A stretch of DNA of 64,000 nucleotides, taken from positions 3,817 through 67,816 of the forward strand of contig JAUHYP010000013.1 in assembly GCA_030426265.1 (NCBI GenBank), given 5' to 3'. Shown piece by piece: positions 7,846 through 30,246 of the stretch; the stretch's first letter is position 1, and the number at the start of each line of letters is the position of its first letter. A program made the position numbers and the translations under genes. The notes under the pieces are model-generated. The model was not told where the DNA came from. It worked only from the letters and a program-made list of their open reading frames with translations, and did not search any database. This stretch comes from Gammaproteobacteria bacterium (GTDB taxonomy: Bacteria; Pseudomonadota; Gammaproteobacteria; Xanthomonadales; SZUA-36).

Positions 7846-10284
7846 TCAGTCCAGGGAGTGGGCGGCCAGCAGTTCGCGGAAGGGTTCGTCGTCCATTCCG
7901 GCGTCACGGAGGGTGTCGACCAGGGGTCGCGCCTCTTCGTAGCGACCCAGATGCACCAGTGCGGTGGCCTGGGTGTACTGGTAGTACTTGTTGTCCGGCT
8001 CCCGGGCCAGGACGGGCGTCATCAGTCTGGATGCTTCGCTCCAGAGCGCCACGGCCTGCTCCCTGGTACCGATTCGGGCCAGCACGCTACCCAGGCTGAC
8101 CAGGTCGATAGCCAGGTCATTGGCCGCGGTAAAGCTGCCCGAGTCGGCTTCGGCGAGCTGGCGCGAGATGTCCAGGCTCTCTTTGTACAGCGCTCGCGCC
8201 GCCTCCAGGTTGCCCTGGCGCTCGGCGATCTCCCCGCGCGTGGTGAGTGAATAGGCCAGCTCCCGTTCGTACTCGAGGTTCTGTGGCGCCATGAGCTGCA
8301 GCTGGCGGCCGGTTTCGATGGCCCGGTCCGCCGCGGCCGCAGCCTCGGCGGCGCGACCCTCCTGGGTCAGCATGAAGGCCAACTGGTTGAGCACGATGCG
8401 CAGGTTGTGGTGGGTTTCAATGACGTCTCCGGCCTCAGCCACGGCCCCTTCCGCCTGTTCGATGGCGCGGCGCATGGCGGGCTCGGCTTCCGCGGCGTCG
8501 CCATAGTCGTAGGCGTACCAGGCCAGCGCCTGCCAGCTGTGGGATCGGTTGATCAGCCAGTCATGGGTCTCGACGCCCACCTGCTGTGTATTGGCGAGTT
8601 CCAGGGCTGCCTGTAGTTGTTCCTCGGCCTGTTCTGGCCGGTCGTATTCCATCAGGTACCAGCCCAGCAGCAAGCGTGCTTCCCACAGCAGGGCGTGGCC
8701 TTCATCGTATTGATCCACCAGGCGCCCGGCACGGTCCACCGCTTCGCGCAAAAGGGTCTCCGTGACGGCGCCCTGACCTTCGGTGGCGCTGGACTCGCTT
8801 TCGAGGATCAACAGGGTCGCCCGCTGGCGCAGCCAGTCGCGCTCCCGCCCGGGCGCCTGCTCCAGCGGCGCCAGGTTCAGCGCGGCCTGTTCGAAGGCAT
8901 GCTGGGCCCGGGTGGGTTGTTCCAGGGCATCGAGCACCTGGCCGGCGTTGGCGTAGGCGGCCGAGGTCAGCAAGCGGGCGTCATCGTCCATGATGCCGGG
9001 GTCCTGCTGCGACAGATGTTCCAGGCTGCGGTCCGCGACCAGGGAGAGCAGGTCGATGCGTCCCAGGTCGGTCAAGCGCTCGAACAGGTCGCCGAGCATG
9101 AAGTTGATCAGGGTGTCGCTTTGCTTCTTCTCAGCCAGGGTGGCCGACTGCAGGCTCCTCACGTCCATGGTGTACTTGAACGTGAACGCCACGCCAGCGA
9201 ACAGCGCAAGGGCCGCCACCGAGGCGGCCAGGGCATGACGCCGCAGGGCCTTTACGACGACGTGAAACAGCCGGTGCCGACTGGCCTCCAGGGGAAATCC
9301 GTTGAGCCAGGCGTCGAGGTCGATGCGCAGGGCCTCCGCCGACGCGTAGCGATCCTCGGGATGCTCTCGGGTGCATCGCTCGATCACATCCACCAGGTCT
9401 CCGGGCACGCCATGCGCGGACAGGGCGCGACGCCGGGCATCCCGGGTCATGCGGCCAGCGTTGTCCGTGTCGCCGTCGAGCAGCACCTGGGCCAGCAGTA
9501 TCCCCAGGGCGTACAGGTCGGCGCGCGGGTCCACGGCTTCGCCGGCCAGTTGTTCCGGAGCCGCAAACCCCGGCGTGCCGAAGCGAACCCCTCGTCGTGC
9601 CTGTCCAAGGCCGGCGGCTTCCAACGCGATGCCGAAATCGATCAGAACGGGATAGGCCGCGCCACTGATGTCGCGGATGAGGACATTGGCCGGCTTGATG
9701 TCCATGTGCACGATGCCCCGCAAGTGCACGAAACGCAGGGCATCGCACAACTCGCGAAACATCCGCACGACCGAACGCGTGTCGGATGCATGCTGACGGA
9801 AATACGCGTCAATGTGCGGTCCGTCGATCTTCTCGAGCACCAGCCAGGGGCGGCCGCCCGCACCGAAGCCGCCATCGAGGATCTGCACGATGCCGGGGTG
9901 GCCCAGGTCCGCCAGCAACTGCATCTCGCGCAGCAGCTGTTCCCGGGCCGTGTCCTGGTCGTAACGCGCAGCGAGGAGCTTGATGACGACCGTCCGGGCG
10001 TACACGCCGTCCGCGCGCTCCGCCAGGTAGACATCGCTCTGGCCGCCGGTGTCCAGGCGCTCCAGTACGCGATAGCGCGTGCCGCCGATCTCGGCGGTGG
10101 GTGGTTCGTCCTCGAAGGCTTGTCCGAGCAGGCTGCCCAGGCGGTCCTGGAGGGCGGGGGGCGCCAGGGGCGCTTCGATGCCCAGTTGGCGCAGGCAATC
10201 TTCGGGATCGAGGCTGTCGTCGTCGTCAAAGGCGGCATCGATTCGCCGCCAGAGTTCGTGGGTGTTCCCGGGTGGCTCGTTCAT
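7846..10284 (-). CDS. membrane Ser/Thr protein kinase with extracytoplasmic TPR-like repeats
   Basis: Hanks kinase motifs are present: VVIKLL Lys, HMDIKPANVLI catalytic loop, DFGIA and APE. One TM helix (LAASVAALALFAGVAFTF) is followed by about 430 aa of helical TPR-like repeats. An ATGA overlap with the sigma gene lies at 10281-10284. Confidence 0.9.
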   Translation of the reverse strand: MNEPPGNTHELWRRIDAAFDDDDSLDPEDCLRQLGIEAPLAPPALQDRLGSLLGQAFEDEPPTAEIGGTRYRVLERLDTGGQSDVYLAERADGVYARTVVIKLLAARYDQDTAREQLLREMQLLADLGHPGIVQILDGGFGAGGRPWLVLEKIDGPHIDAYFRQHASDTRSVVRMFRELCDALRFVHLRGIVHMDIKPANVLIRDISGAAYPVLIDFGIALEAAGLGQARRGVRFGTPGFAAPEQLAGEAVDPRADLYALGILLAQVLLDGDTDNAGRMTRDARRRALSAHGVPGDLVDVIERCTREHPEDRYASAEALRIDLDAWLNGFPLEASRHRLFHVVVKALRRHALAASVAALALFAGVAFTFKYTMDVRSLQSATLAEKKQSDTLINFMLGDLFERLTDLGRIDLLSLVADRSLEHLSQQDPGIMDDDARLLTSAAYANAGQVLDALEQPTRAQHAFEQAALNLAPLEQAPGRERDWLRQRATLLILESESSATEGQGAVTETLLREAVDRAGRLVDQYDEGHALLWEARLLLGWYLMEYDRPEQAEEQLQAALELANTQQVGVETHDWLINRSHSWQALAWYAYDYGDAAEAEPAMRRAIEQAEGAVAEAGDVIETHHNLRIVLNQLAFMLTQEGRAAEAAAAADRAIETGRQLQLMAPQNLEYERELAYSLTTRGEIAERQGNLEAARALYKESLDISRQLAEADSGSFTAANDLAIDLVSLGSVLARIGTREQAVALWSEASRLMTPVLAREPDNKYYQYTQATALVHLGRYEEARPLVDTLRDAGMDDEPFRELLAAHSLD

Positions 10285-19237: not shown

Positions 19238-19256
19238 CGGCAAAGTCTAGCGCAAG
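19229..19256 (+). repeat. left copy of the direct repeat bracketing the TIR/caspase island
   Basis: The 15-nt core AAAGTCTAGCGCAAG (19242-19256) is identical to 29610-29624. The 13 nt to its left match 7 of 13 by hand alignment, and a shared ATCGAT lies a few nt to the right. Confidence 0.55.
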
Positions 19257-19314: not shown

Positions 19315-19521
19315 GGCATTGTCGCCGGGTGGGAACTCCTGGATGCACTGTCGCAATGGATCGACGCCTTCGCGGGCGGAGGTGGGATCGACATCGCCGT
19401 GCTGTTCGCCAGCGCCCTGGCCGTGACCATCTACTGCAAGCTGATGGCGAAAACCCTGGCGCCGAAGCACGTCCGGGTGAATGTCGTGACGCTAGCTGGT
19501 TTCAGAATGCCGCCGGCTTGA
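19315..19521 (+). pseudogene. possible remnant of a short-chain dehydrogenase gene
   Basis: This open frame has no start codon and reads GGGGIDIAVLFASALAVTIYCKLMAKTLAPKHVRVNVVTLAGF. It matches the SDR pattern (Y-x3-K, then A-K-x2-A-x3-[IV]-R-V-N-x4-G) seen in the intact SDRs of this window. Both ends are truncated and the segment overlaps the 3' end of the TIR gene. Confidence 0.3.
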
Positions 19522-21460
19522 GGTTTCGCGAATGCCAGACCATGCCGTTCTCGTCGGTGCCCTGGTAGTAGTCGCCGACCCGCCTGTGAAAGGGAATTCG
19601 GATGTTGAGCGGTTCACCTGATGTTACGACCAGTCCGCTCAATTGAACGCCGAGGTGAATCGGGTTTGTCTGGTGGTCTCCGGCATCGAGCAAGGGATAC
19701 CCGCTTCCGTGAATCTGTTGCGCTGATTTGCCCGGAAGGATCAACTGCCCGTCGAATTGCTGATCGGAGGCCAGTTGGAACTGTAGTTCGATCACTCCAT
19801 GGAGGCTCGCCGCCCGTGCTTCCCAGTGGCCCTCGTACCGGACCTCCTGAACTCCTTCGTCATTGACCTGGCGGGCCGGTACGAATCGGGGTAAGTGTGA
19901 AGTGTCCGCCTTGCTGCTCAGGTCTTCCCCGGTCGCAAGTCGCTGCTCGATACTCTCAAGGTCTTGCTGGGTTTTGCGCGAGGAGGCGGCCTCCCTCTCC
20001 AAAAGGTCGACGAGGTCCTGGACCAGGTAGGGAAATTCAGACCTGAACCGGCTTTCGTTCAATCCAACAGCGTGCAGTGTGGTCAGCCGCTTCAGGGAGC
20101 TGGGAAGTTCTTCAATCGCGGGCATATCGGCGCCATTCAGAAGTACCGGAAGGATCGCACGGAAACTCTCGAAGGCGGTTTCCACCTCCCTGCGGACCAC
20201 GTCCTGGACGGTCATTATCCCGCCATTGCGAGTCCAGTCCTTATCGATCAGGACCAGTACCACGTTTGCCCGGCGTATTTCGTCGCGAATCGCTTGGGTC
20301 CAGTCCGTTGCTGCTACGTTGTCCGCCACGTCCTGGAACACCTTCATGCGGGGAAAACGCAGCTCCAGTTCGCGTTTGATCTGTCCCGCCAGCGTCGAGG
20401 CGCCGGAGCGGCGGTAGGACAGGACAATGCGTGTCTCGCGCTGGCGGACATAGGCATCCTGTTGCAGAGGTTGCATCCATGGCCTCGCGGCGGGCTCGAA
20501 CTCGTCTGCCAGGTCGGGAGCGGTCGAACTATAGTCACCTGGCGCCAACCCCTGGCTGAGCATGAGAGCGGTGGCAATCCGCGCCAGCTGGCCGTACTCC
20601 TCGAAACCGGTCGCTTCGGGATGCGTGGCATTCCGCGACAGGGTGACGTAGGCCTCCAGGGCCGAGGGGAAGGCACAGAGTTTGCAGAGATCCCGCAACA
20701 GATTCGACCGCAGGCTGGGCCTGTGCGGGTCCAGGTGAATGCCGAACAGGTTTTCACGCAGGGAATCTGTATGTCGACCCATCTTGCTGTACACCACCGC
20801 CAGGGTGCCACGAAAGTAGGCGTCGTAGGGATTGAGCTGTTTGAGGCCTTCAAATCCCTCTCGCGCCGAGTCGATGTCGCCGCGCTTTAGCGCCTGAAAG
20901 TGTTCTTCCGCCCTGTCGTAGGCTTGTTCCATGGTCACGCGTTCCACCACGGACCGCGCCTCGCCGTCGACCAGGAGACTGGCCAGTTCCCGTTCCGCAT
21001 CGTCGAAGAGTCGACTGAGGCCCGATCCGGCCAGGTCGGCGTACAGGCGCAGCGCTCGTTCGGTATCGGCCCGTTGATCGGGTCTGGCGATTCGCATGTG
21101 CGTCACCAGGCCATTGCCAAGGACATCCGGAAGCTGGTCTGCACAGTCAGCGTAGGACCAGGCATCGATGGGATCCAGCTGTTCAAACCGGGCATTGGTG
21201 AATGCATTGAGCGCTCGCATCGACCGGACCAGTGCGATCTGTGTGAACTGGACTTCGAGCGCGGCCGGTCGATCACCGAAGCGCTGCAGGAAGGTTGCTA
21301 TCGCGTTGCTGGCGGCGGTGAGTGATTTCGCGTCCAGTGCGAGGGGACGGGTGCACCCCAGCAGCTCCTGTTCGTCGCCAGGAAGCAACGCCTGTCCACA
21401 GTGCCGACAGAAGGCGCTGTCGTCAGGATTGTCGCCCTGGCATTGCGTGCACTGCGTCAT
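19502..21460 (-). CDS. zinc-ribbon / TPR-like / TIR-domain protein with unknown C-terminal domain
   Basis: Start MTQCTQCQGDNPDDSAFCRHCGQ (CxxC...CxxC zinc ribbon). Helical TPR-like middle region. The TIR domain lies at about 19997-20434 (RIVLSYRRSGAS ... VVLVLIDKDW ... REVETAF). About 135 aa of unassigned beta-rich C-terminus follow. Confidence 0.8.
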   Translation of the reverse strand: MTQCTQCQGDNPDDSAFCRHCGQALLPGDEQELLGCTRPLALDAKSLTAASNAIATFLQRFGDRPAALEVQFTQIALVRSMRALNAFTNARFEQLDPIDAWSYADCADQLPDVLGNGLVTHMRIARPDQRADTERALRLYADLAGSGLSRLFDDAERELASLLVDGEARSVVERVTMEQAYDRAEEHFQALKRGDIDSAREGFEGLKQLNPYDAYFRGTLAVVYSKMGRHTDSLRENLFGIHLDPHRPSLRSNLLRDLCKLCAFPSALEAYVTLSRNATHPEATGFEEYGQLARIATALMLSQGLAPGDYSSTAPDLADEFEPAARPWMQPLQQDAYVRQRETRIVLSYRRSGASTLAGQIKRELELRFPRMKVFQDVADNVAATDWTQAIRDEIRRANVVLVLIDKDWTRNGGIMTVQDVVRREVETAFESFRAILPVLLNGADMPAIEELPSSLKRLTTLHAVGLNESRFRSEFPYLVQDLVDLLEREAASSRKTQQDLESIEQRLATGEDLSSKADTSHLPRFVPARQVNDEGVQEVRYEGHWEARAASLHGVIELQFQLASDQQFDGQLILPGKSAQQIHGSGYPLLDAGDHQTNPIHLGVQLSGLVVTSGEPLNIRIPFHRRVGDYYQGTDENGMVWHSRNLKPAAF

Positions 21461-21501
21461 GATCGTTCCGATCCAATCGTCTACCCGAACAGGAGGGACC
21501 C

Positions 21502-22482
21502 TCAGATCCGCCCCTTCTGAACCAGCCGCCGGTAGTGCTCGCCCAGCTCCGTCAGCCTGCACGCTGTGCGCTCCATCGCGGCATGCCACATGTTGGCCTT
21601 CGAGGCGCCCACGGGGACGACCAGGTTCAGGCGGTTCATTTTCTGCAACAACAGGAACCTGGCGACGTTTTCCGGGTCGGGAGGCGGCGCGTCCGGTTCG
21701 CGGCCGGCCATTTCCGGTTCGAAGCTCGGGTCCAGCGCGAACTCGCTGCCGGGTTCGGGGAAGAATTTCAGGATCTTGCGCAGCTCAGCGAGCTCGATCG
21801 GCGGCGGGACGTTTCTCAGCGACACGAACTTCTTGATATTGGTCCGGAACAGCGGGCGCTGCTCGAAGCCGCCCAGTGATTCGTCGATGTGCGCGTAGAC
21901 GCTGCCGGGCGATATGGCGCCCAGCAGATTCGCGGCGCTGCCTTTCAGGGCATCCACGAACAGGGTCGTGAACACTCCGCGCCCGTCCTTTTCACTCGCA
22001 TACTGCTCCGCGGTGGATGCGGTGAGCACTGTCAGGCCTTCGGACAGGACCACGAGGTCCTTGTGCAGGGGCGCGGCGCCCGCGATGCCGGAGTGGCAGC
22101 TGTCCAGGATGACGAGCTTGTTCCGGGCCGGTGAAAGGTTGGCGTAGGTCAGGACGTCGTTGAGCGAGAGCCCTTCGTCGCCCCGGCTCGAGTCCGAGGT
22201 CAGCAGGTAGCCGCCCGTCGCCTCGATGTGCCCATGGCCGGCGAAGTAGAACAGGGCCACGTCCGCGTCGATGGAGAACACTTCCTTGACGGCGTCGCGC
22301 AGCTGCCTCCGTCCGAGGCCGCTGGCAGCGTCCTTCGCCAGGAACGGCTTGCAATCGAAGTTGCGGGAACCATCACCGTTCCGACCCAGGACATCGAGCA
22401 CGGCACGGGCATCCTCGACGCACCCGAACAAGGGCCGCCCGTGTTGGTAGTAATTGATTCCGACAACCAGCGCGACGCGCAT
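21502..22482 (-). CDS. caspase-like (Peptidase_C14 / orthocaspase-type) protease with unknown C-terminal domain
   Basis: MRVALVVGINYY start. The catalytic His sits in FYFAGHGH (codon 22234-22236) and the Cys in ILDSCHSG (22096-22098). About 115 aa of unassigned C-terminus follow. An alternative GTG start lies at 22491. Confidence 0.85.
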   Translation of the reverse strand: MRVALVVGINYYQHGRPLFGCVEDARAVLDVLGRNGDGSRNFDCKPFLAKDAASGLGRRQLRDAVKEVFSIDADVALFYFAGHGHIEATGGYLLTSDSSRGDEGLSLNDVLTYANLSPARNKLVILDSCHSGIAGAAPLHKDLVVLSEGLTVLTASTAEQYASEKDGRGVFTTLFVDALKGSAANLLGAISPGSVYAHIDESLGGFEQRPLFRTNIKKFVSLRNVPPPIELAELRKILKFFPEPGSEFALDPSFEPEMAGREPDAPPPDPENVARFLLLQKMNRLNLVVPVGASKANMWHAAMERTACRLTELGEHYRRLVQKGRI

Positions 22483-22653
22483 TTCGTCCACTCACGATCG
22501 AATTGTCTATAAATGTAGCAAGTGCGGAGCATCTTGCTCGTGCGCGCAGGTCTTTGTTTTTCAAAGCGACAGGGCGCAGACTATGGGCAGGCCGGTGGGT
22601 GGTTGGTGCTATTCGCCGGACACGCCGCACGCTGTACGGAACGAGGCGCCCTT
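22483..22653. promoter_or_regulatory. divergent control region between the two TIR/caspase operons
   Basis: About 170 bp, locally AT-richer. It holds a TATAAA element at 22508-22513 and an inverted repeat AGCAAG-N10-CTTGCT at 22517-22538. No promoter could be called confidently. Confidence 0.3.
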
Positions 22654-25554
22654 GTGAATGACATCCACATACCCGGCTACGAAATCCTCAAGCAGTTGGG
22701 GATCGGGGGCATGGCCAGGGTGTACAAGGCGCGCCAGTTGTCGCTGGAGCGGGAAGTCGCCATCAAGGTCTTGCGGGCCGATCTCGGGGACGACGTCGAG
22801 TCCTTCAAGAGGCGGTTTTTCAACGAGGGCAGGATCCTCGCCAGCATCACGCACCCCAACATTGTCGCCGTCTACGACCTCGGCGAGGCGGGGGACGCGC
22901 TCTACATCGCCATGGAGCTCGTGCCCGGGGACACCCTCGAGGAGATGGTCCGCAGGGACGGCGTGACGCTGGAACAGGCCATCGGAATCTGCCGGAAGAT
23001 TGCAGGCGCCCTGGATCGGGCGCACGCCAAGGGCGTGATTCACCGCGACATCAAGCCCTCGAACATCCTCATGGAAGACCTGGACACGCCGAAGCTGGTC
23101 GATTTCGGCATCGCCCGGGGTCGCCAGGCCGATGTCGGCATGACCCAGGAAGGCGTCATGCTCGGCACGCCGTTGTACATGAGTCCGGAGCAGGTCCAGG
23201 GCGTCGCCATCGACGAGCGTACGGACATCTATGCGTTGGGCGTCACGCTGTACTGGCTCCTGGCGGGCCGCCATCCTTTCGAGGGGGACGCCGCGCTCGG
23301 CATCGCACTCAAGCACCTGCATGATCCGATCCCCGAACTTCCCGAAGCGGTGGCCGGACTGCAGGCCATCGTCGAGCGCGCGATGGCCAAGGACCCGGCA
23401 GATCGTTTCCAGAGCGCCAGGGAGTTTGCCGATGCCCTCGACGCGGTGGAACTCGATGGTCCGCCGCTCCATCTCGGTGTTCCGACCGCCGATCCGGCGG
23501 GACCCACGCTCGGTCGCACCCAGCCGGCTTACCCGACCCTCGAGGTGCCCCGCAGGGGCGCCTCGCCCGCGACGAAACGCGGTGGTTGGCTCAGCGCCAT
23601 CCTCGGCTGGTTCGGGAAGTCAGACGACGGGGGTGAAGCCGGAACGACCGGGCGCGCATCCGCTCAAGCTCCCGCGGCGCCGGACCCGCAGGCGCAGACC
23701 CACCCACAGATGCCCTCCGTCTCCGGTTCCGAAAAGGGTGCAACGCCGGCCCCCACGCCGGCCCCCTGGCAGGAGTCCACGGGCGCCGCCACCATCCTGA
23801 GTCCCATCACGCCGCCCGCCGAACCCGAATCCCCACCCACCCTCCCCGGGGAACTGGCGCCGCCGTCGGGTGATGACACGCAGTTCCTGGTTCCCGGCGA
23901 GGCCGGCACGGAGCAGGGGCTGGTCGTCAGCCTCGCCGTGACGAGCTCGCCTGACCCATCGTTCGTGGGCACCCGGGTCCAGTGCCAGTCGTTCCCGTTC
24001 CGGATTGGCAGGGGCGGAGAGGCCGATCTGAAAATCGAGCGCGACAGCGCCATCTCCCGGAACCATGCCGAGATCTTCAAGATCGGCTCGGGGTATTACC
24101 TCAAGGACACCAGCGCCAACGGCATCGTGGTCAACGGACAGCTGGGCAAGGACCAGTCCGTGCCCCTGCCGTTCAACAGCTCGATCCAGCTCTCCGATTC
24201 GACGACGCTGACGTTCCAGCCCCACCTCGAACTGCTGCCGGACCTGACGGGCCAGCGCATCGGCGACCGTTTCGACGTCGAGAAAGCCCTCCACCACAGC
24301 ATCAAGGCCTCCACCTACCGCTGCCGGGACCTCGACATGCCGCGCACCGTGGTGGTCAAGCTGTTCTCCCCGCACCTCATGTCCCTGGAGCAGTTCCGGG
24401 ACGAATTCGAACGGCAGGCGAGGCTGACCATGAAGTTCACTTCGCCGCACATCGTCAAGGTGCTCGAGTTCAAGGAGTTCCCGATCCCGCAGATCGCCGC
24501 CGGCAAGCCGGTTTCCTACGTGTGCACCGAGTACATGGAAGGCGGCAGCCTGGCCCGGCGCATGGATGACGAGGACTTTCCGGAAGCGGAACAGGCGCTG
24601 AACTGGGTGGTCGTGCTGGCGCGCGCGTTGGACCATGCTCACCGGCGCGGTGTCGTGCATGGCGACCTCAAGCCCAGCTGCATCGTGTTCGATGCCGACG
24701 GCGCGCCCTACGTCACGGATTTCGCCATGGCGGTGACGGAAGGGGAGGGCAAGGACAGCGCCCGGACCGGCACGCCGGCCTTCTGGGCGCCGGAACAGTG
24801 GGACCGCCAGGCGGCGACCGAGCGCACGGACCAGTACAGCCTGGCCGTGCTGGCCTACTTCATGCTCTCCGGCGCCCGGCCCTTCGAAGGCCAGTCGCAG
24901 CCCCGGATTCGCGAGCGAAACTTCCGCCGCGGCCCCGAGCCGGTGCACGAGGTGGCCGAGCGACGGCGCGGACTGGCGCTCAACAGCAACCTGTCCCAGG
25001 TTCTGGCGCGGGGCATGAGCGTCGACCCGGAAGCGCGCTACGAGTCCGTGACCGCCTTCGCCACCGCCCTGTCCCAGGCAGCGCACACGGCCGAGCAGCG
25101 CCGCAGCACCCCGCGCGTGTTCATCAGTTACCGGCGCAAGGCCAACGCGGGTTGGGCGAACCTCTTTGATTACAACCTCAGGAACCAGTTCGGGTTCGAG
25201 GTGTTCATCGATGCGCGCGCGGTGGACGGTTCGCCGCAGATCCCGACCCGGGTGCGGAACGAAATCGATCGTTGCGATGTCTTCGTCTGCCTGCTCCACC
25301 CCGAGACACTGGAGTCGGACTGGGTGCGGGCGGAGATCAAGCTGGCGCACGAGGCCCGCAAACCCATGGTTCCGGTGTTCTCGGAACACTTCCAGCCCGG
25401 CGCCTACAAGGAGGCGGCGGCCGAAATCCAGGCCCTGCTGGACCACGAGGCCGTCATCTTGCTCGACCAGAAGAACGTCTACCTGGATGCGGCCCTCAAG
25501 ATGCTGGCCGACCAGGTGCAAAAGCTCGTGGGGCCGAGCGGTCGCGTGCACTGA
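22654..25554 (+). CDS. Ser/Thr kinase - FHA - kinase-like (possibly pseudokinase) - TIR fusion protein
   Basis: - Kinase 1 (about 22678-23445): GIGGMARVY loop, VAIK Lys 22765-22767, HRD Asp 23047-23049, DFG, SPE.
- Pro-rich linker.
- FHA (about 23950-24225): FRIGRG, SRNHA, ANG.
- Second kinase-like domain (about 24250-25075): no Gly-rich loop, HGD at 24658-24666, DFA instead of DFG.
- C-terminal TIR (about 25111-25530): RVFISYRR ... SDWVRAEI.
- The start is inferred as GTG 22654 (GAGG upstream); the track start at 22522 is an upstream GTG. Confidence 0.85.
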   Translation: MNDIHIPGYEILKQLGIGGMARVYKARQLSLEREVAIKVLRADLGDDVESFKRRFFNEGRILASITHPNIVAVYDLGEAGDALYIAMELVPGDTLEEMVRRDGVTLEQAIGICRKIAGALDRAHAKGVIHRDIKPSNILMEDLDTPKLVDFGIARGRQADVGMTQEGVMLGTPLYMSPEQVQGVAIDERTDIYALGVTLYWLLAGRHPFEGDAALGIALKHLHDPIPELPEAVAGLQAIVERAMAKDPADRFQSAREFADALDAVELDGPPLHLGVPTADPAGPTLGRTQPAYPTLEVPRRGASPATKRGGWLSAILGWFGKSDDGGEAGTTGRASAQAPAAPDPQAQTHPQMPSVSGSEKGATPAPTPAPWQESTGAATILSPITPPAEPESPPTLPGELAPPSGDDTQFLVPGEAGTEQGLVVSLAVTSSPDPSFVGTRVQCQSFPFRIGRGGEADLKIERDSAISRNHAEIFKIGSGYYLKDTSANGIVVNGQLGKDQSVPLPFNSSIQLSDSTTLTFQPHLELLPDLTGQRIGDRFDVEKALHHSIKASTYRCRDLDMPRTVVVKLFSPHLMSLEQFRDEFERQARLTMKFTSPHIVKVLEFKEFPIPQIAAGKPVSYVCTEYMEGGSLARRMDDEDFPEAEQALNWVVVLARALDHAHRRGVVHGDLKPSCIVFDADGAPYVTDFAMAVTEGEGKDSARTGTPAFWAPEQWDRQAATERTDQYSLAVLAYFMLSGARPFEGQSQPRIRERNFRRGPEPVHEVAERRRGLALNSNLSQVLARGMSVDPEARYESVTAFATALSQAAHTAEQRRSTPRVFISYRRKANAGWANLFDYNLRNQFGFEVFIDARAVDGSPQIPTRVRNEIDRCDVFVCLLHPETLESDWVRAEIKLAHEARKPMVPVFSEHFQPGAYKEAAAEIQALLDHEAVILLDQKNVYLDAALKMLADQVQKLVGPSGRVH

Positions 25555-25688
25555 ACGCCTGGCGGGTGCGGCGCAGGGCGAGGCAGGGGCCTGCCCGAAC
25601 CAGCGAATTTCCCGGCGCTGTCCTATAGTCGAATTCATGCGGATCATTTCAATGATTCGTTGTCGACACGGAAGGAGGTCAGAGGGAA

Positions 25689-27533
25689 GTGGCCAGGAAA
25701 GCGGCCATCGTGATCGGGGTGAACACCACGGGTGGCCTCACCCCGTTGCGCTCGGCGGCGCGCTGCGCCGACGAGGTGGCGGAGTGGCTCGAGGCGGAGG
25801 GCTATGACGTCGCCTGCCTGACGGACGCGGACGAACCGGTCACCACCGGCCGCGTCACCGACGCCATGGACCGGTTCGTGACCGTGCCGCCGCGCTATGC
25901 GCAACTGGTGGTGTACTTCACCGGACACGGGTACTGGCACGCCCGGGCCGACATCTGGCTGCTCAGCAAGGCGCCGGTCCGGACGGAAGAAGCCATCAAC
26001 CTCGAGGGCGCCATCGACCTGGCCCGCTATTCGGGCATCCGCAACGTCATCTTCATCTCGGACGCCTGCCGGTCCCTGCCCGACGTACGGTCCGGCGCGC
26101 TGGTCCAGGGCATCGACGCTTTTCCCAACTTCGCCGACATCACGACCCAGTCGAAGATCGACGTGTTCCGCGCCACCAGTGACGCCCAGGCGGCCTACGA
26201 GGCGGAGGTGGACGGCCAGCCCACCAGCCTGCTGACGCACGCGCTGCGTGCGGCCTTCCGCGAACCCGAGCCCGACATGCTGCGGGACGTGGGCGGTCAG
26301 CAGGTCGTCCCGAACCGGCGGCTCGAGAAGTACCTGCAGCGCAAGATCGACACCACCCTGGGGGCCATCGACCTCAACCTGCGCCAGCGCATCGAGGTCA
26401 ACGTCCCCTCGGATGACGACATCTACATCGCGACCGCCGCCGTCGCCCCGAGCCGACCGCCACCCGGCGAAGTCGTGCATCGTGGTGCGGGCGACGACTT
26501 TGGGATGGACGACCTTCCCATGACTTCGGGTGCGGAGCCGGCATCCCCGGAACCGGAGCCCCCGAAATCGGTGCCTCCCGCAGAGGCCGTTCCCCCCGCG
26601 CCTTCGGTGCTCGGGGACATCCGCGGCAACCTGGATCGCGTGTTCTCCGAGCCCATGGGCATGTCCGACTCCGCCACGATCAATTTCACGATGGACATGA
26701 CGGAGACCGTCGACCGCCTGTCCGGACTCATGCCCCGACCGGACGTGGCGGATCACTTCGAATCCCATTGCGGGTTCACGATTTCCGGCGCCCGGATCGA
26801 GGAGGCCATCTGCGGCGGCGCCGCGGACGGGGTCTTCATCGAACGGTTGTACGAGGGCGATGGCGCGGACCAGCCGGCCGTGGTCCGCCTGTGGGACGCC
26901 GCCCCCGGCGCGACCGTGTTGCTGCGCACGGACGACGGTCGCGTCCTGGTGCTGGCCGGCTTGCCCGATTTCATCGGGCACGCGACGGTCGGCGAAGCCG
27001 GCCTGAAGAACGTGAGCTACATCCCGTCGTCCAATGCCGGCGAGCTCTACGATTTCTACCGGGAAAAGCAGGAGCGCATCGATCGCTTCCGCGCCCTGGT
27101 CGCCCTGGCGGCCAACGAAAACGAGTTCCGGCTGGAATCCGATGACGCGGCCATCCGGCTGGCGGACGAGATCCGGATGGTCAAGGCCCTGGATCCCACG
27201 CTGGGACTGTACGCCGCCCATGCCTACGCCCAGGCCAGCAAGGTGGAAAAGGTGGCCAGTGTCGCCGACGCCATGCGCCACGACCTGCACATCGACCTGT
27301 TCGACCTGGTCGTATTGACCTCGCGCCGTGGCGATCCCTGGCCGGACCGCCCGGTCATGCCGTTCTGCCCGCTGCTCACGCAAACCTGGAACCTGCTCCG
27401 GCCCCGCGGAATCGAGCTGCATCCCGCGCTGGCGGAAGCGTCCGCCTACCTGCGCAACGCCCTGTGGACGACCTTCGAGGCCGAGGCCTGGGATCCGCTC
27501 CGCGCGGCGATGGAATTGGGAGAGTTGAGATGA
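25689..27533 (+). CDS. caspase-like protease domain with a ~400-aa unknown C-terminal region
   Basis: GTG start with AGGAGG SD. KAAIVIGVN is followed by His in VVYFTGHG (25926-25928) and Cys in FISDACRS (26067-26069). A Pro-rich linker leads into an unassigned C-terminal region. Confidence 0.8.
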   Translation: MARKAAIVIGVNTTGGLTPLRSAARCADEVAEWLEAEGYDVACLTDADEPVTTGRVTDAMDRFVTVPPRYAQLVVYFTGHGYWHARADIWLLSKAPVRTEEAINLEGAIDLARYSGIRNVIFISDACRSLPDVRSGALVQGIDAFPNFADITTQSKIDVFRATSDAQAAYEAEVDGQPTSLLTHALRAAFREPEPDMLRDVGGQQVVPNRRLEKYLQRKIDTTLGAIDLNLRQRIEVNVPSDDDIYIATAAVAPSRPPPGEVVHRGAGDDFGMDDLPMTSGAEPASPEPEPPKSVPPAEAVPPAPSVLGDIRGNLDRVFSEPMGMSDSATINFTMDMTETVDRLSGLMPRPDVADHFESHCGFTISGARIEEAICGGAADGVFIERLYEGDGADQPAVVRLWDAAPGATVLLRTDDGRVLVLAGLPDFIGHATVGEAGLKNVSYIPSSNAGELYDFYREKQERIDRFRALVALAANENEFRLESDDAAIRLADEIRMVKALDPTLGLYAAHAYAQASKVEKVASVADAMRHDLHIDLFDLVVLTSRRGDPWPDRPVMPFCPLLTQTWNLLRPRGIELHPALAEASAYLRNALWTTFEAEAWDPLRAAMELGELR

Positions 27534-28405
27534 GAATCCTGTTCATTCACGGACGCGCCCAGGGTGGCAAGGACCCGGTCGCCCTGGCGAAACTCTGGAA
27601 CGACACCCTGAAGCTGGGCTTGGAATCGGCCACGGAGGCCCTGCCGGACGGGGTCGGGGTGGACTTTCCCTATTACGGCGATGCGCTGGACGACTTCACC
27701 GCGCGCGCCGATCTGCCGTCCCCGGACGAGGTGGTCGCCAAGGGGCCGGGCCAGGACGCCGGCTTCGAATCGTTCATGCAGAGCGCCCTGGACGAGATGT
27801 ACCAGAAATCCAGCCTCACCGAGGACCAGGTGGAAGCCGAGATGACCACCGGCCAGGTGCAGGAGAAGGGCCCGCAGAACTGGGGCTGGGTGCAGGCCAT
27901 CGCCCGGGCCCTGGACAAGCATGTCACGGGAGCGGCGGACTGGACCATCGACCGATTCCTGAAGGACGTGTACCTGTACGTCAACATCCCGACCGTCACC
28001 CGCGGCATCAACGCCATCGTCGAGGACATGATCACGGATGAGCCGACCGTGGTGGTCGGCCATTCCCTGGGCACCGTGGTGGGCTACAAGGTCATCCAGG
28101 AGAACCAGGGCAGGCTCAACGCCTGCAAGTACATCACCCTGGGCTCACCCCTGGGCATTCGCGCCATCAGTTCGAAACTGGGCCTCCCGGAAAACCTCGC
28201 CAAACAGGGCTGGTACAACGCCTACGACGACGGCGACGTGGTGGCCCTGAACCCGCTGGATGACCGGTATTTCCCGACCGACCCGGAAATCGTGAACAAC
28301 AACGGCGTCCACAATTTCACGGACAACCAGCACGGCATCGCCGGCTACCTGAACGACGCCAGGGTGGCGGCGGAGATCGTCAAGGCGGTGCGCGGTCACC
28401 CTTAG
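27530..28405 (+). CDS. alpha/beta-fold hydrolase (lipase/esterase-like)
   Basis: ATGA overlap with the upstream stop (27530-27533). MRILFIHGRAQGG start. The nucleophile elbow is VVVGHSLGT (Ser codon 28064-28066). There is no signal peptide. Confidence 0.75.
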   Translation: MRILFIHGRAQGGKDPVALAKLWNDTLKLGLESATEALPDGVGVDFPYYGDALDDFTARADLPSPDEVVAKGPGQDAGFESFMQSALDEMYQKSSLTEDQVEAEMTTGQVQEKGPQNWGWVQAIARALDKHVTGAADWTIDRFLKDVYLYVNIPTVTRGINAIVEDMITDEPTVVVGHSLGTVVGYKVIQENQGRLNACKYITLGSPLGIRAISSKLGLPENLAKQGWYNAYDDGDVVALNPLDDRYFPTDPEIVNNNGVHNFTDNQHGIAGYLNDARVAAEIVKAVRGHP

Positions 28406-28432: not shown

Positions 28433-29551
28433 TCAGTCCTGGTCGGATTCAGTGATGCGAATGTCGCGGAGCAGTCGCTCCAGGGCACGCTCATAGCTCG
28501 TGGCGTCCTGCCAGTTCGAGAAATCACCGATCTGCCGCGCGTTGCGAATGTCCGAACTCCAACCTGATTCCACATCGAGAATCGAGTCGTCGAGCCGGAT
28601 CGGCAGGAGGACGCCGATCTTCAGTTTGGTTTCCTTGCGAAAAGCGGTTTCGACTTCCTTTTCGATCCACGGGCTCTCAAAGGAATTCGCGGACAGCACG
28701 AGCAGCAGGTGATCGTGTTGCCCGATGGCTTCGTCGATGCGGTTGCGAATACGGTCGCCGATTCTCATGTCTTCCGGAGCGAACCAGCAGCGAACCCCTG
28801 CGGCCTGCAGGTCCCCGTACAGCTTCCGGACGAAGGCTTCGTCACGTTGGTTGTAACTGATGAAACAGGAGCGGTATTTCTGAAGCTGGGCGACCTCTTC
28901 GGTATACAGCGCGATCACCCTGTCCGGCATGCCGCAACCTCGCAGAAATTCCGGAACGGCATGCCCCATCCAGCGAACGGTGTCGTGATCCAGGGAACTG
29001 GGGCCGAGATGAACCGTGTCGTCGAGTCCGGTCGCTTCGCGAAAGTCGGTCCGACCGAAGACGGTATCCAGGAAACTCGCCCGGCCAAGCGCCGCGCGAT
29101 AGAAATTGGTTTTGCGAAGGTCTGCGCCCGCCAGGTTGCTCCCGGTCATGGTTGCGCGAACCAGGCGGGCCCTGCGCAGGCAGGCCTGGCTGAGATCTGA
29201 ATCGATGAGATAGGCGCGCTCCAGGTTCGCGCCGCTGAGGTCTGCCTGGTACAGGGTCGCGTGATCGAGCGTCGCCTTGCTCAGGTCAGCCCCTCCGAGA
29301 TTGGCCTTGACCAGCCGTGCGCCCGTCAGGTTCGCGCCACAGAGGTTCGCGTAGGTCAGGTTGGCATGGCCCAGATCCGAGCCGGAAAGATCGGTGCCCA
29401 GGAGCATCGCGTCCTGCAGGTCGATGTGACCCAGGTCCTTTCCAGCCAGGTTGGCGCCGGACAGGTTGGCGTCTTCCCCTCGGCGCTGTTTCCACTCGTT
29501 CCATGCGAGAACGCCGGCTTCGAGCTTGCGCAACTGCTTGGGGTTCGCCAT
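28433..29551 (-). CDS. pentapeptide-repeat - TIR-domain protein
   Basis: ATG at 29551 (MANPKQLRKLE). About 28 pentapeptide units (ANLSGANLAGKDLGHIDLQDAMLLGTDLSG...) span about 29053-29473. The C-terminal TIR lies at about 28570-28870 (SCFISYNQRD ... LLLVLSANSFESPWIEKEVETAF). Confidence 0.85.
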   Translation of the reverse strand: MANPKQLRKLEAGVLAWNEWKQRRGEDANLSGANLAGKDLGHIDLQDAMLLGTDLSGSDLGHANLTYANLCGANLTGARLVKANLGGADLSKATLDHATLYQADLSGANLERAYLIDSDLSQACLRRARLVRATMTGSNLAGADLRKTNFYRAALGRASFLDTVFGRTDFREATGLDDTVHLGPSSLDHDTVRWMGHAVPEFLRGCGMPDRVIALYTEEVAQLQKYRSCFISYNQRDEAFVRKLYGDLQAAGVRCWFAPEDMRIGDRIRNRIDEAIGQHDHLLLVLSANSFESPWIEKEVETAFRKETKLKIGVLLPIRLDDSILDVESGWSSDIRNARQIGDFSNWQDATSYERALERLLRDIRITESDQD

Positions 29552-29596
29552 GCGGTCGTTTCCTTTGACCTCGATCCCGGCCGAGGGATCCAGTCC

Positions 29597-29624
29597 GATC
29601 ACCACCAAAAAAGTCTAGCGCAAG
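29597..29624 (+). repeat. right copy of the direct repeat bracketing the TIR/caspase island
   Basis: The core AAAGTCTAGCGCAAG at 29610-29624 is identical to 19242-19256. A perfect 7-bp inverted repeat CGAACGG-N5-CCGTTCG follows at 29636-29654. Confidence 0.55.
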
Positions 29625-29724: not shown

Positions 29725-30246
29725 ATGATGCCATCCGGTGATGCCAACATGAGCCACGCACGTCCGATCCCTTCAGAGGTCCGCTACCGCGACCCGGCCT
29801 TCGAGCAGGCACTGGGGAGTCTTGGTGGCCCCGTGAAGGGGCAGGGCGCCACGGTCTGGCTGTTTACCGGGATGCCGGGCGCGTTCCTGCGCAAGGAAGC
29901 CCAGTCCGTGGCGGCCCGGCTGGGCAAGCGCCTGGTCACGGTCGACCTGAAACCCGCCGGCAGCCGCTACATCGGCGAAACGGAAAAGAACCTGTCCCGC
30001 ATGTTCGGCGAGGCCAGCCGCTCCGGCTGGATCCTGTTCTTCGACGAGGCCGACGCCCTGTTCGGCAAGCGCAGCAACGTCCAGGACGCCCACGACCGAT
30101 ATGCCAACCAGGAAGTCAGCTACCTGCTGCAATCCATCGAGGCGCACCAGGGCCTGGTCATCCTGGCGACCAACCATCCTTCCGCGGCGAAACCGGCGTT
30201 CAAGTCCAGCCGGACGCGGAGCATGGTGGTGAAGTTTCCGCCTTAG
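29725..30246 (+). CDS. truncated/degenerate classical-clade AAA+ ATPase module
   Basis: The core is strongly AAA-like: SRYIGETEKNLSRMFGEA, Walker B ILFFDEADALFGKR (30031-30054) and DRYANQEVSYLLQ. The Walker A position reads GMPGAFLRKEA (29869-29895) instead of GxxGxGK[ST]. The protein is only 173 aa. Confidence 0.7.
   Translation: MMPSGDANMSHARPIPSEVRYRDPAFEQALGSLGGPVKGQGATVWLFTGMPGAFLRKEAQSVAARLGKRLVTVDLKPAGSRYIGETEKNLSRMFGEASRSGWILFFDEADALFGKRSNVQDAHDRYANQEVSYLLQSIEAHQGLVILATNHPSAAKPAFKSSRTRSMVVKFPP

Follow-up and report, generated by a model that had tools for sequence, protein, structure and literature searches.

Here we describe a gene for a pentapeptide-repeat–TIR fusion protein, hereafter PRP-TIR, in a 64,000-nucleotide stretch of DNA (the window) from a Gammaproteobacteria bacterium (contig JAUHYP010000013.1, positions 3,817 to 67,816). 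Profile matches and structure prediction give us confidence that the product is composed of a predicted right-handed quadrilateral pentapeptide β-helix, a linker and a TIR fold. We give an even chance to the proposal that it is a cytoplasmic, single-gene TIR NAD+ glycohydrolase of the abortive-infection type, governed by its pentapeptide rod. The architecture is commonplace in sequence databases and the copy in the window is an ordinary member; the value of the finding rests in the family (at least 1,100 clusters at 50% identity, from many phyla) and not in this copy. Comparison of family members fits a variable recognition or assembly platform that drives a conserved, predicted NADase.

Both domains were matched far above chance level. 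The Pfam model Pentapeptide (PF00805) was found in five stretches with an E value of 5.3e-34 (115.8 bits against a cut-off of 20.2), and TIR_2 (PF13676) covered residues 230-361 with an E value of 1.5e-25 (90.5 bits against 28). Residues 30-179 form 30 unbroken pentads in a single register, in which the central residue is Leu in 24 pentads, Phe in four and Met in one, while Ala occupies position i-2 in 20 of the 30 and Asp or Asn position i-1 in 17. The AlphaFold 2 (AF2) model, with a mean predicted local distance difference test score (pLDDT) of 89.3 and a predicted template modelling score (pTM) of 0.63, placed one short strand per five residues over residues 25-180. In its TIR part, strands at 229-232, 255-257, 281-286 and 315-319 with helices between them gave a flavodoxin-like alternating β/α fold, with pLDDT values of about 85-93 except in the BB loop, where they were low at residues 261-269. 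For the rod, Foldseek against the PDB returned synthetic beta1, Np275/276 and HetL first, followed by MfpA, AlbG and QnrB1, all with a probability of 1.0; the match of the TIR part was the SPARTA TIR. The first-pass annotation of this DNA, made from the letters alone, had described about 140 residues of pentapeptide repeats followed by a linker and a TIR domain. This order of domains was borne out by Pfam, AF2 and Foldseek, and the pentapeptide region is real but slightly longer than stated, at about 150 residues (30 pentads). The β-helix that the annotation had proposed to check by AlphaFold was indeed the fold of the repeat region in the model (pLDDT 93-99). The linker, composed of three helices, was conserved to the same degree as the TIR domain in an alignment of 40 relatives. 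Pfam, PADLOC and NCBIfam revealed no NTPase domain in PRP-TIR, and Pfam no effector-associated domain (EAD).

The open reading frame (ORF) lies on the minus strand, from an ATG at 29551 to a stop codon at 28433-28435. A longer, TTG-initiated version extends to 29608; the ATG is the likely start because an AGGA sequence lies 9 nt upstream of it and the 40 aligned relatives begin with 'MAN'. At its 3' end the gene converges on a 291-amino-acid (aa) gene ending at 28405, and at its 5' end it diverges from a 173-aa AAA fragment starting at 29725, and it is therefore monocistronic here. In a strain about 1% divergent, recovered from other metagenome runs, the gene differs at 28442, 28574 and 28616; two of these three listed changes are synonymous (D370 and D326) and one gives I312M, which is consistent with a maintained gene. 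Coordinates of the gene, its domains and associated features are collected in Table 1.

Table 1. Positions of PRP-TIR, its parts and associated features (window coordinates, except for the tandem arrays, which are given by locus of the relatives)
Feature	Position	Strand	Remarks
PRP-TIR gene, complete	28433..29551	-	372 aa + stop codon, intact ORF
N-terminal two-helix cap, residues 1-26	29474..29551	-	W17, N18, W20 invariant in family
Pentapeptide-repeat β-helix (predicted), residues 27-179	29015..29473	-	30 in-register pentads, ~7.5 coils, AF2 pLDDT 93-99
Helical linker, residues 180-227	28871..29014	-	motifs H181-x-G-P-S185 and F202-L-R-G-x-G-x-P209
TIR domain, residues 228-365	28457..28870	-	FISY, RCWFAPED..G (BB loop), S293-x-W295
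Codon of E299, predicted catalytic Glu (W295+4)	28655..28657	-	from alignment with relatives and PdTIR, AaTir, AbTIR
Shine-Dalgarno-like AGGA	29561..29564	-	read from sequence, 9 nt 5' of ATG
15-nt sequence AAAGTCTAGCGCAAG	29610..29624		59 nt 5' of PRP-TIR ATG; belonging to gene uncertain
Zn-ribbon...TIR protein	19502-21460	-	second gene of minus-strand operon
Caspase, 329 aa	21502-22491	-	first gene of minus-strand operon
Kinase-FHA-kinase-TIR protein, 1,010 aa	22522-25554	+	first gene of plus-strand operon
Caspase, 614 aa	25689-27533	+	second gene of plus-strand operon
291-aa GHSLG hydrolase-like protein	27530-28405	+	overlaps caspase stop (ATGA)
PRP-TIR tandem arrays in relatives	L019 3455-8565; L034 8548-13441; L043 8314-12528; also L012, L018, L024

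The TIR domain of PRP-TIR carries the features expected of an enzyme. The position of E299 is occupied by Glu in 93 of 94 relatives and by Asp in the remaining one; when PdTIR, AaTir and AbTIR are aligned with PRP-TIR, E299 falls on the Glu of their W...E motif. By sequence the closest solved TIR domains are all bacterial, namely PdTIR (3h16), AaTir (7uwg), AbTIR (8g83, deposited under the name NAD(+) hydrolase) and TcpB/BtpA. With this group (8g83, 7uwg, 3h16, 4c7m and 4lqc; E values of 6.6e-10 to 6e-6) PRP-TIR has in common the FISH/Y, BB-loop Gly and W...E motifs, as well as having no visible partner gene, but the identity is low, about 30% over some 90 residues. These proteins carry N-terminal coiled-coil or unstructured regions, not a pentapeptide β-helix with cap and linker. 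The Pfam model ThsB_TIR was slightly over its cut-off (24.3 bits against 21.2). In PADLOC the TIR part alone matched the PDC-S66, SAVED_TIR, Aga_TIR and, weakly, ThsB models, and no model covered the whole pentapeptide-repeat and TIR architecture.

The rod is the variable part of the protein. Across relatives the repeat region measures 84-278 aa, or about 16-55 repeats. Tandem arrays of two or three PRP-TIR paralogues were found in genomes of Chloroflexota, Ktedonobacteraceae, Acidobacteriota and Calditrichia (Table 1); some of these loci also carry short TIR-only ORFs. Paralogues within an array are 67-80% identical in the N-cap and 51-77% in the linker and TIR, compared with 35-42% in the repeats, which are also unequal in length. 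The latter figure is close to what we estimate for any two pentapeptide proteins. By analogy, a variable rod between constant ends fits the pattern of immune receptors with a diversifying recognition part. A broader form of the idea in the first-pass annotation, in which the repeat domain would be a variable recognition part coupled to TIR activation, is in line with the data.

In TIR NADases such as SARM1, AbTir, TIR-SAVED, SPARTA and the plant TIRs, catalysis requires TIR-TIR assembly. At rest, the rod of PRP-TIR would hold the TIR domains apart or in an inactive oligomer, under the self-association threshold at which a composite active site forms. The trigger might be an invader-derived macromolecule that binds the variable outer faces of the rod, or else a ligand that makes rods associate, side by side or end to end, by way of the conserved cap and linker. 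In either case the TIR domains would be brought together to build the composite active site, and the assembled TIRs would cleave NAD+, possibly yielding a cyclic ADP-ribose (cADPR) isomer as well. The collapse of NAD+ would then kill or arrest the cell and stop phage replication, as in abortive infection.

In its mode of action PRP-TIR would resemble, by analogy, the standalone bacterial TIR NADases and the sensor-TIR fusions of the nucleotide-binding leucine-rich-repeat (NLR)/Avs type, minus the NTPase switch. Proteins of the TIR-NB-ARC/NACHT-WD40/TPR, Avs and bNACHT types likewise fuse a TIR effector to a variable repeat domain that forms a superstructure, and the sensor repeats of bNACHT proteins include pentapeptide repeats (10.1101/2022.07.19.500537). 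PRP-TIR differs from them in that an NTPase switch, STAND or other, is absent between the sensor and effector parts, in its much smaller size (372 aa) and in the position of its repeats, which are N-terminal to the TIR domain. If so governed, it would extend the known repertoire by a minimal, NTPase-free control of a TIR NADase. Proteins with pentapeptide repeats exist in very large numbers, and most of them, save a few cases (Qnr/MfpA, HetL), have no known partner. A rod wired to an enzyme with a simple read-out, the loss of NAD+, could make this family a means of learning what pentapeptide rods recognise.

PRP-TIR belongs to the TIR_2 and Pentapeptide superfamilies and is not a member of Qnr/MfpA, of Thoeris as operationally defined, of TIR-STAND, of the CBASS/Pycsar TIR effectors or of SPARTA. 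With Qnr, MfpA, AlbG and McbG it has the right-handed quadrilateral β-helix fold in common, but these are stand-alone proteins of about 180-220 aa, whereas in PRP-TIR the rod is joined to an enzyme domain. In repeat sequence and in fold, the nearest natural proteins are Np275/Np276 and HetL (2j8k, 3du1; E values of 5e-41 and 6e-39), which follow the same A(D/N)LxG-type consensus but have neither a TIR domain nor a conserved linker. The NCBIfam model of HetL reached 85.6 bits against a cut-off of 260 and that of PipB2 85.9 against 354; PRP-TIR missed all NCBIfam cut-offs for Qnr and MfpA too, and the cut-off of no curated pentapeptide model was reached. The ThsB proteins of Thoeris types I-XI, like PRP-TIR, have a TIR domain with a catalytic Glu, and PRP-TIR matched their profiles weakly; in type IV, caspase-like genes lie near the TIR gene, as they do in the window. 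PRP-TIR, however, is monocistronic and has no conserved adjacent effector in 80 related loci, in contrast to the operon with an effector (ThsA, ThsC to ThsL) that defines Thoeris, and standalone TIRs are explicitly outside that definition (10.64898/2025.12.03.692087). Unlike the CBASS/Pycsar TIR effectors it has no SAVED or STING domain, and unlike SPARTA no APAZ/pAgo neighbour. Of the EAD-coupled effectors of Kaur et al. 2020, the PRP-TIR of the window lacks the EAD, but one relative of 477 aa (P0102) carries an extra C-terminal EAD7 (effector-associated domain 7). According to Kaur et al. 2020 (PMC7159879), EAD7 serves as an adaptor through which effectors are brought to conflict systems; its presence in this relative fits PRP-TIR as an effector module and links some family members, at the least, with the adaptor-coupled conflict systems of that study.

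The family is large and widespread. A word-indexed search with PRP-TIR gave 3,534 clusters at E<=1e-5, and the best 120 of these all combined Pentapeptide with TIR_2, at 39-53% identity and with lengths of 303-538 aa. Their source names included 'YjbI with pentapeptide repeats', 'TIR domain/Pentapeptide repeats' and 'toll/interleukin-1 receptor domain-containing protein'. The linker and TIR module (192 aa) was also used as a query against 1.84 billion cluster representatives (50% identity), and returned 1,126 clusters at E<=1e-30 and 5,108 at E<=1e-10. Among 146 newly retrieved top representatives, 108 had clear pentapeptide repeats, the rest being fragments or having other N-terminal regions. 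In one-genome-per-species contigs at least 366 stretches encoded a relative, with a best identity of 47% among the matches listed. The database search for this architecture that the first-pass annotation had suggested thus found it widely. The phyla with relatives include Acidobacteriota, Chloroflexota, Cyanobacteria, Chlorobi, Verrucomicrobiota, Proteobacteria and Desulfobacterota; the nearest relative of the PRP-TIR of the window was about 52-53% identical to it, and the linker and TIR of relatives in other phyla about 50-60%.

Carriage by phages or plasmids was considered and rejected, since IMG/VR held just four weak or partial loci and neither the PLSDB plasmids nor the GenBank phages gave a full-length match, repeat-only proteins being found there instead. 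In plasmids (matches H1-H15) these were encoded by small Salmonella plasmids (4.9 kb) and matched residues 3-202, that is, the cap and rod, with about 39% identity; in phages (matches H16-H25) they were numerous, the carriers including mycobacteriophages and phages of Rheinheimera, Caulobacter and Staphylococcus. The apparent absence of the family from the usual laboratory taxa, plasmids and phages may explain the lack of tests on it. A systematic survey of Thoeris discarded standalone TIR proteins as likely to be NAD+-depleting effectors rather than signal producers (10.64898/2025.12.03.692087), and the family therefore fell between studies.

The surroundings of relatives were compared in 80 related loci, in which all ORFs within 7 kb, called by ORF heuristics, were clustered all-against-all. 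Apart from the family itself and antisense shadows, no ORF cluster was found in more than six of the 80 loci, and the most frequent neighbour cluster looks, judged by eye from its sequence, like a tyrosine-recombinase-type integrase. By tblastn the neighbours of PRP-TIR in the window were recovered in none to four of these loci. Of 148 immediate neighbours of relatives, 14 were paralogues in tandem arrays, and the other 134 were heterogeneous in Pfam and PADLOC scans. A conserved operon partner was accordingly rejected, the clustering, the tblastn searches and the scans of 134 neighbours having pointed to no conserved gene. Since PRP-TIR is monocistronic in the window and has no conserved neighbour in the 80 loci, it is best taken as a single-gene unit.

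Immediate neighbours of conflict type included ResIII (three), PIN (three), TIR_2 (three), Mrr (two), type I and type IIG restriction-modification (R-M), DISARM DrmA/DrmD and DRT UG13a. A SLATT gene begins 750 bp downstream of the closest relative (P0003), and IS91 and an integrase are within a few kb. In this locus (L087 342-7009) the relative stands between a 330-aa protein with a faint likeness to nucleoside 2-deoxyribosyltransferase (NDT) and a SLATT/DUF4231 gene, beyond which come the IS91 transposase and a phage-type integrase; neither the SLATT nor the NDT-like neighbour recurs in the other loci searched. Another relative (P0052) is found with type VI secretion system toxins and a TIR-NB-ARC-WD40 protein, and a third (P0028) among housekeeping genes.

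Several observations weigh against an immune NADase governed by its rod. The pTM of 0.63 does not fix the relative orientation of rod and TIR. Many immediate neighbours are housekeeping genes (SmpB twice, aconitase, phosphorylase, dehydrogenases), and the link to defence, suggestive as it is, is guilt by association from one gene on either side, without a background control. Variation in repeat number could be neutral expansion and contraction and not diversifying selection. Collections of phages, plasmids and viral contigs contain almost no family members, so that mobility is not obvious, and a full-text literature search yielded no paper describing or testing a pentapeptide-repeat–TIR fusion.

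Two further proposals specify what the rod would recognise. One of them, a special case of the rod-governed NADase, is the bait suggested in the first-pass annotation: the rod would imitate B-form DNA, phage DNA-binding or DNA-processing proteins would bind to it, the TIRs would cluster and NAD+ would be cleaved. We consider this rather improbable and the data weakly disfavour it, although mimicry by some members remains compatible with them. The rod has the same fold as MfpA, Qnr and AlbG in Foldseek, the repeat region is acidic in most relatives (median net charge -6), many phages themselves encode pentapeptide proteins, and pentapeptide repeats have been proposed to have an inhibitory effect on DNA-binding proteins in conflict systems (PMC7159879). 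The NCBIfam models of the DNA mimics, however, were missed widely (Qnr, 40.5 bits against 240; MfpA, 37.4 against 360), and in sequence the rod is nearer to Np275/276 and HetL than to QnrB1 (2e-21) and MfpA (3e-13). The rod of the window (residues 25-180) is only mildly acidic, with a net charge of -4 that is made up of -6 in coils 1-2 and +2 in the remainder. In the family the net charge runs from -21 to +5, and rods differ about threefold in length; this spread is hard to reconcile with a fixed DNA-shaped ruler and argues against a conserved, fixed-geometry DNA mimic as the family-defining property. A related idea, to which we give a slim chance, is that the rod is an integrated decoy of a nucleic acid or host target, for example the surface with which enzymes of the gyrase/topoisomerase type bind DNA, and that phage DNA-binding or anti-defence proteins crosslink rods and so assemble the TIR NADase. 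If this were true, tandem paralogues with different rods would constitute a small bait repertoire, the family would parallel, in bacteria, the integrated decoys known from plant NLRs, and thousands of orphan pentapeptide-repeat proteins would have a first general function.

Other readings depart from a self-contained immune NADase. PRP-TIR might generate a signal in the manner of ThsB, its TIR sensing infection and making a messenger of the cADPR type that activates an effector encoded close by (here a caspase-like protease, as known from type IV Thoeris) or in another part of the genome; we regard this as unlikely. The marginal ThsB_TIR match and the weak PADLOC matches to ThsB agree with it, as does the tail-to-tail position of PRP-TIR to the operon of the 614-aa caspase and the 291-aa protein, there being two caspases within 8 kb; operons of TIR and caspase are a validated defence system (10.1101/2024.10.24.620036). 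SLATT, found 750 bp downstream of P0003, is listed beside TIR genes in the Thoeris survey (10.64898/2025.12.03.692087), and in locus L067, alone among the 80, a caspase-like ORF was noted some 1 kb upstream. PRP-TIR, however, lies on the opposite strand from the plus-strand caspase operon with an upstream region of its own, each caspase of the window is already paired with its own TIR in its operon, and no effector-like neighbour is conserved, a caspase being present in two of the 80 loci and SLATT being missing from the other loci searched. An unlikely alternative of a different kind is a non-immune role, in which an NAD+-consuming or -signalling enzyme would serve the physiology of the cell itself, for instance stress-induced dormancy, developmental cell death or kin conflict in bacteria that live attached to surfaces or are multicellular, and the rod would bind a host protein. 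The abundance of the family in Acidobacteriota, Chloroflexota, filamentous Cyanobacteria and Chlorobi speaks for such a role, together with the housekeeping genes among many neighbours. The one functionally named cyanobacterial relative of the repeats, HetL, is named for heterocyst differentiation, and the caspases of the island resemble the EACC1-associated type, which is linked to a multicellular habit. On the other hand, the patchy distribution, the tandem arrays, a GC content at third codon positions (GC3) of 0.75 against 0.85-0.90, and the R-M, DISARM, toxin–antitoxin and integrase neighbours are more typical of accessory conflict genes. We consider it highly improbable that the TIR is catalytically silent and acts as an interaction module only, for example by recruiting other TIR proteins of the island, with the rod as scaffold. 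Three TIR proteins are indeed clustered within 10 kb, and animal TIR domains were long regarded as adaptors; yet 93 of 94 relatives retain the catalytic Glu with the motifs around it, TIR_2 occurs in only three of the 134 non-paralogue immediate neighbours, most loci having no other TIRs, and the three TIRs of the island are of different subfamilies.

The last point follows from direct comparison of the three TIR domains by sequence. The first-pass annotation had noted a close resemblance between the motif regions of two of them and suggested duplication within the island. Both strings, 'SPWIEKEVETAF' in PRP-TIR and 'RREVETAF' in the TIR of the 19502-21460 gene, do exist, but they do not reflect close kinship. 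BLAST aligned the TIR of PRP-TIR with the Zn-ribbon TIR over only 28 aa around the common 'EVETAF' motif (E 0.06) and gave no match with the kinase-linked TIR; the latter two were 25% identical over 129 aa. A hidden Markov model (HMM) of the family's TIR scored 230 bits on the TIR of PRP-TIR itself, 12 bits on the kinase-linked TIR and 3 bits on the Zn-ribbon TIR. Local duplication was thus ruled out by pairwise BLAST and by the family HMM.

PRP-TIR lies at the right edge of a 10-kb cluster, which stands between a DUF2339 gene and the AAA fragment with a LytTR gene. The cluster is rich in genes of conflict type, with two caspases, two further TIRs and a kinase-FHA protein. Its two caspase and TIR operons (19502-28405) resemble type IV Thoeris (TIR and caspase-like protease), and both caspases match the 'EACC1-associated' caspase model, but under its cut-off. 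The window has a GC content of about 65%, the flanks of the cluster encode TonB-dependent receptors and β-oxidation genes, and no tRNA genes were found in it; GC content and flanking genes point to a Gram-negative host of high GC. The sequence AAAGTCTAGCGCAAG forms an exact direct repeat whose only copies in the window are at 19242-19256 and 29610-29624 (chance expectation 0.07). The first of them is situated just 5' of DUF2339 and the second 5' of PRP-TIR, so that the pair brackets the six-gene cluster, and weaker similarity runs about 20 nt past the copies. The repeat may be a promoter element, an island boundary or what is left of a target-site duplication. No empty-site joint was present in the contigs of four metagenome runs (labelled biofloc, aquaculture or food, and dominated by the source bacterium at about 290x depth), and excision of the island between the repeats was rejected; in these runs the cluster had the same contig depth as its flanks, and it was also present in the strain about 1% divergent.

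The GC3 was 0.75 in the PRP-TIR gene and 0.71 in the Zn-ribbon TIR gene, against 0.85-0.90 in the genes between and around them. This suggests later acquisition and hints that the two TIR genes at the cluster edges were gained separately and more recently. The AAA+ fragment at 29725-30246, a relative of the anti-phage ATPase IetA/IteA, is probably a remnant: it has an intact Walker B motif (ILFFDEAD) but a degenerate Walker A (GMPGAFLRK), and it lacks the N-terminal region usual in such proteins. About 18 kb away, a second large Ser/Thr kinase, of 812 aa and on the minus strand (7846-10284), gave a partial match to the model of the MADS6 defence kinase, far under the cut-off.

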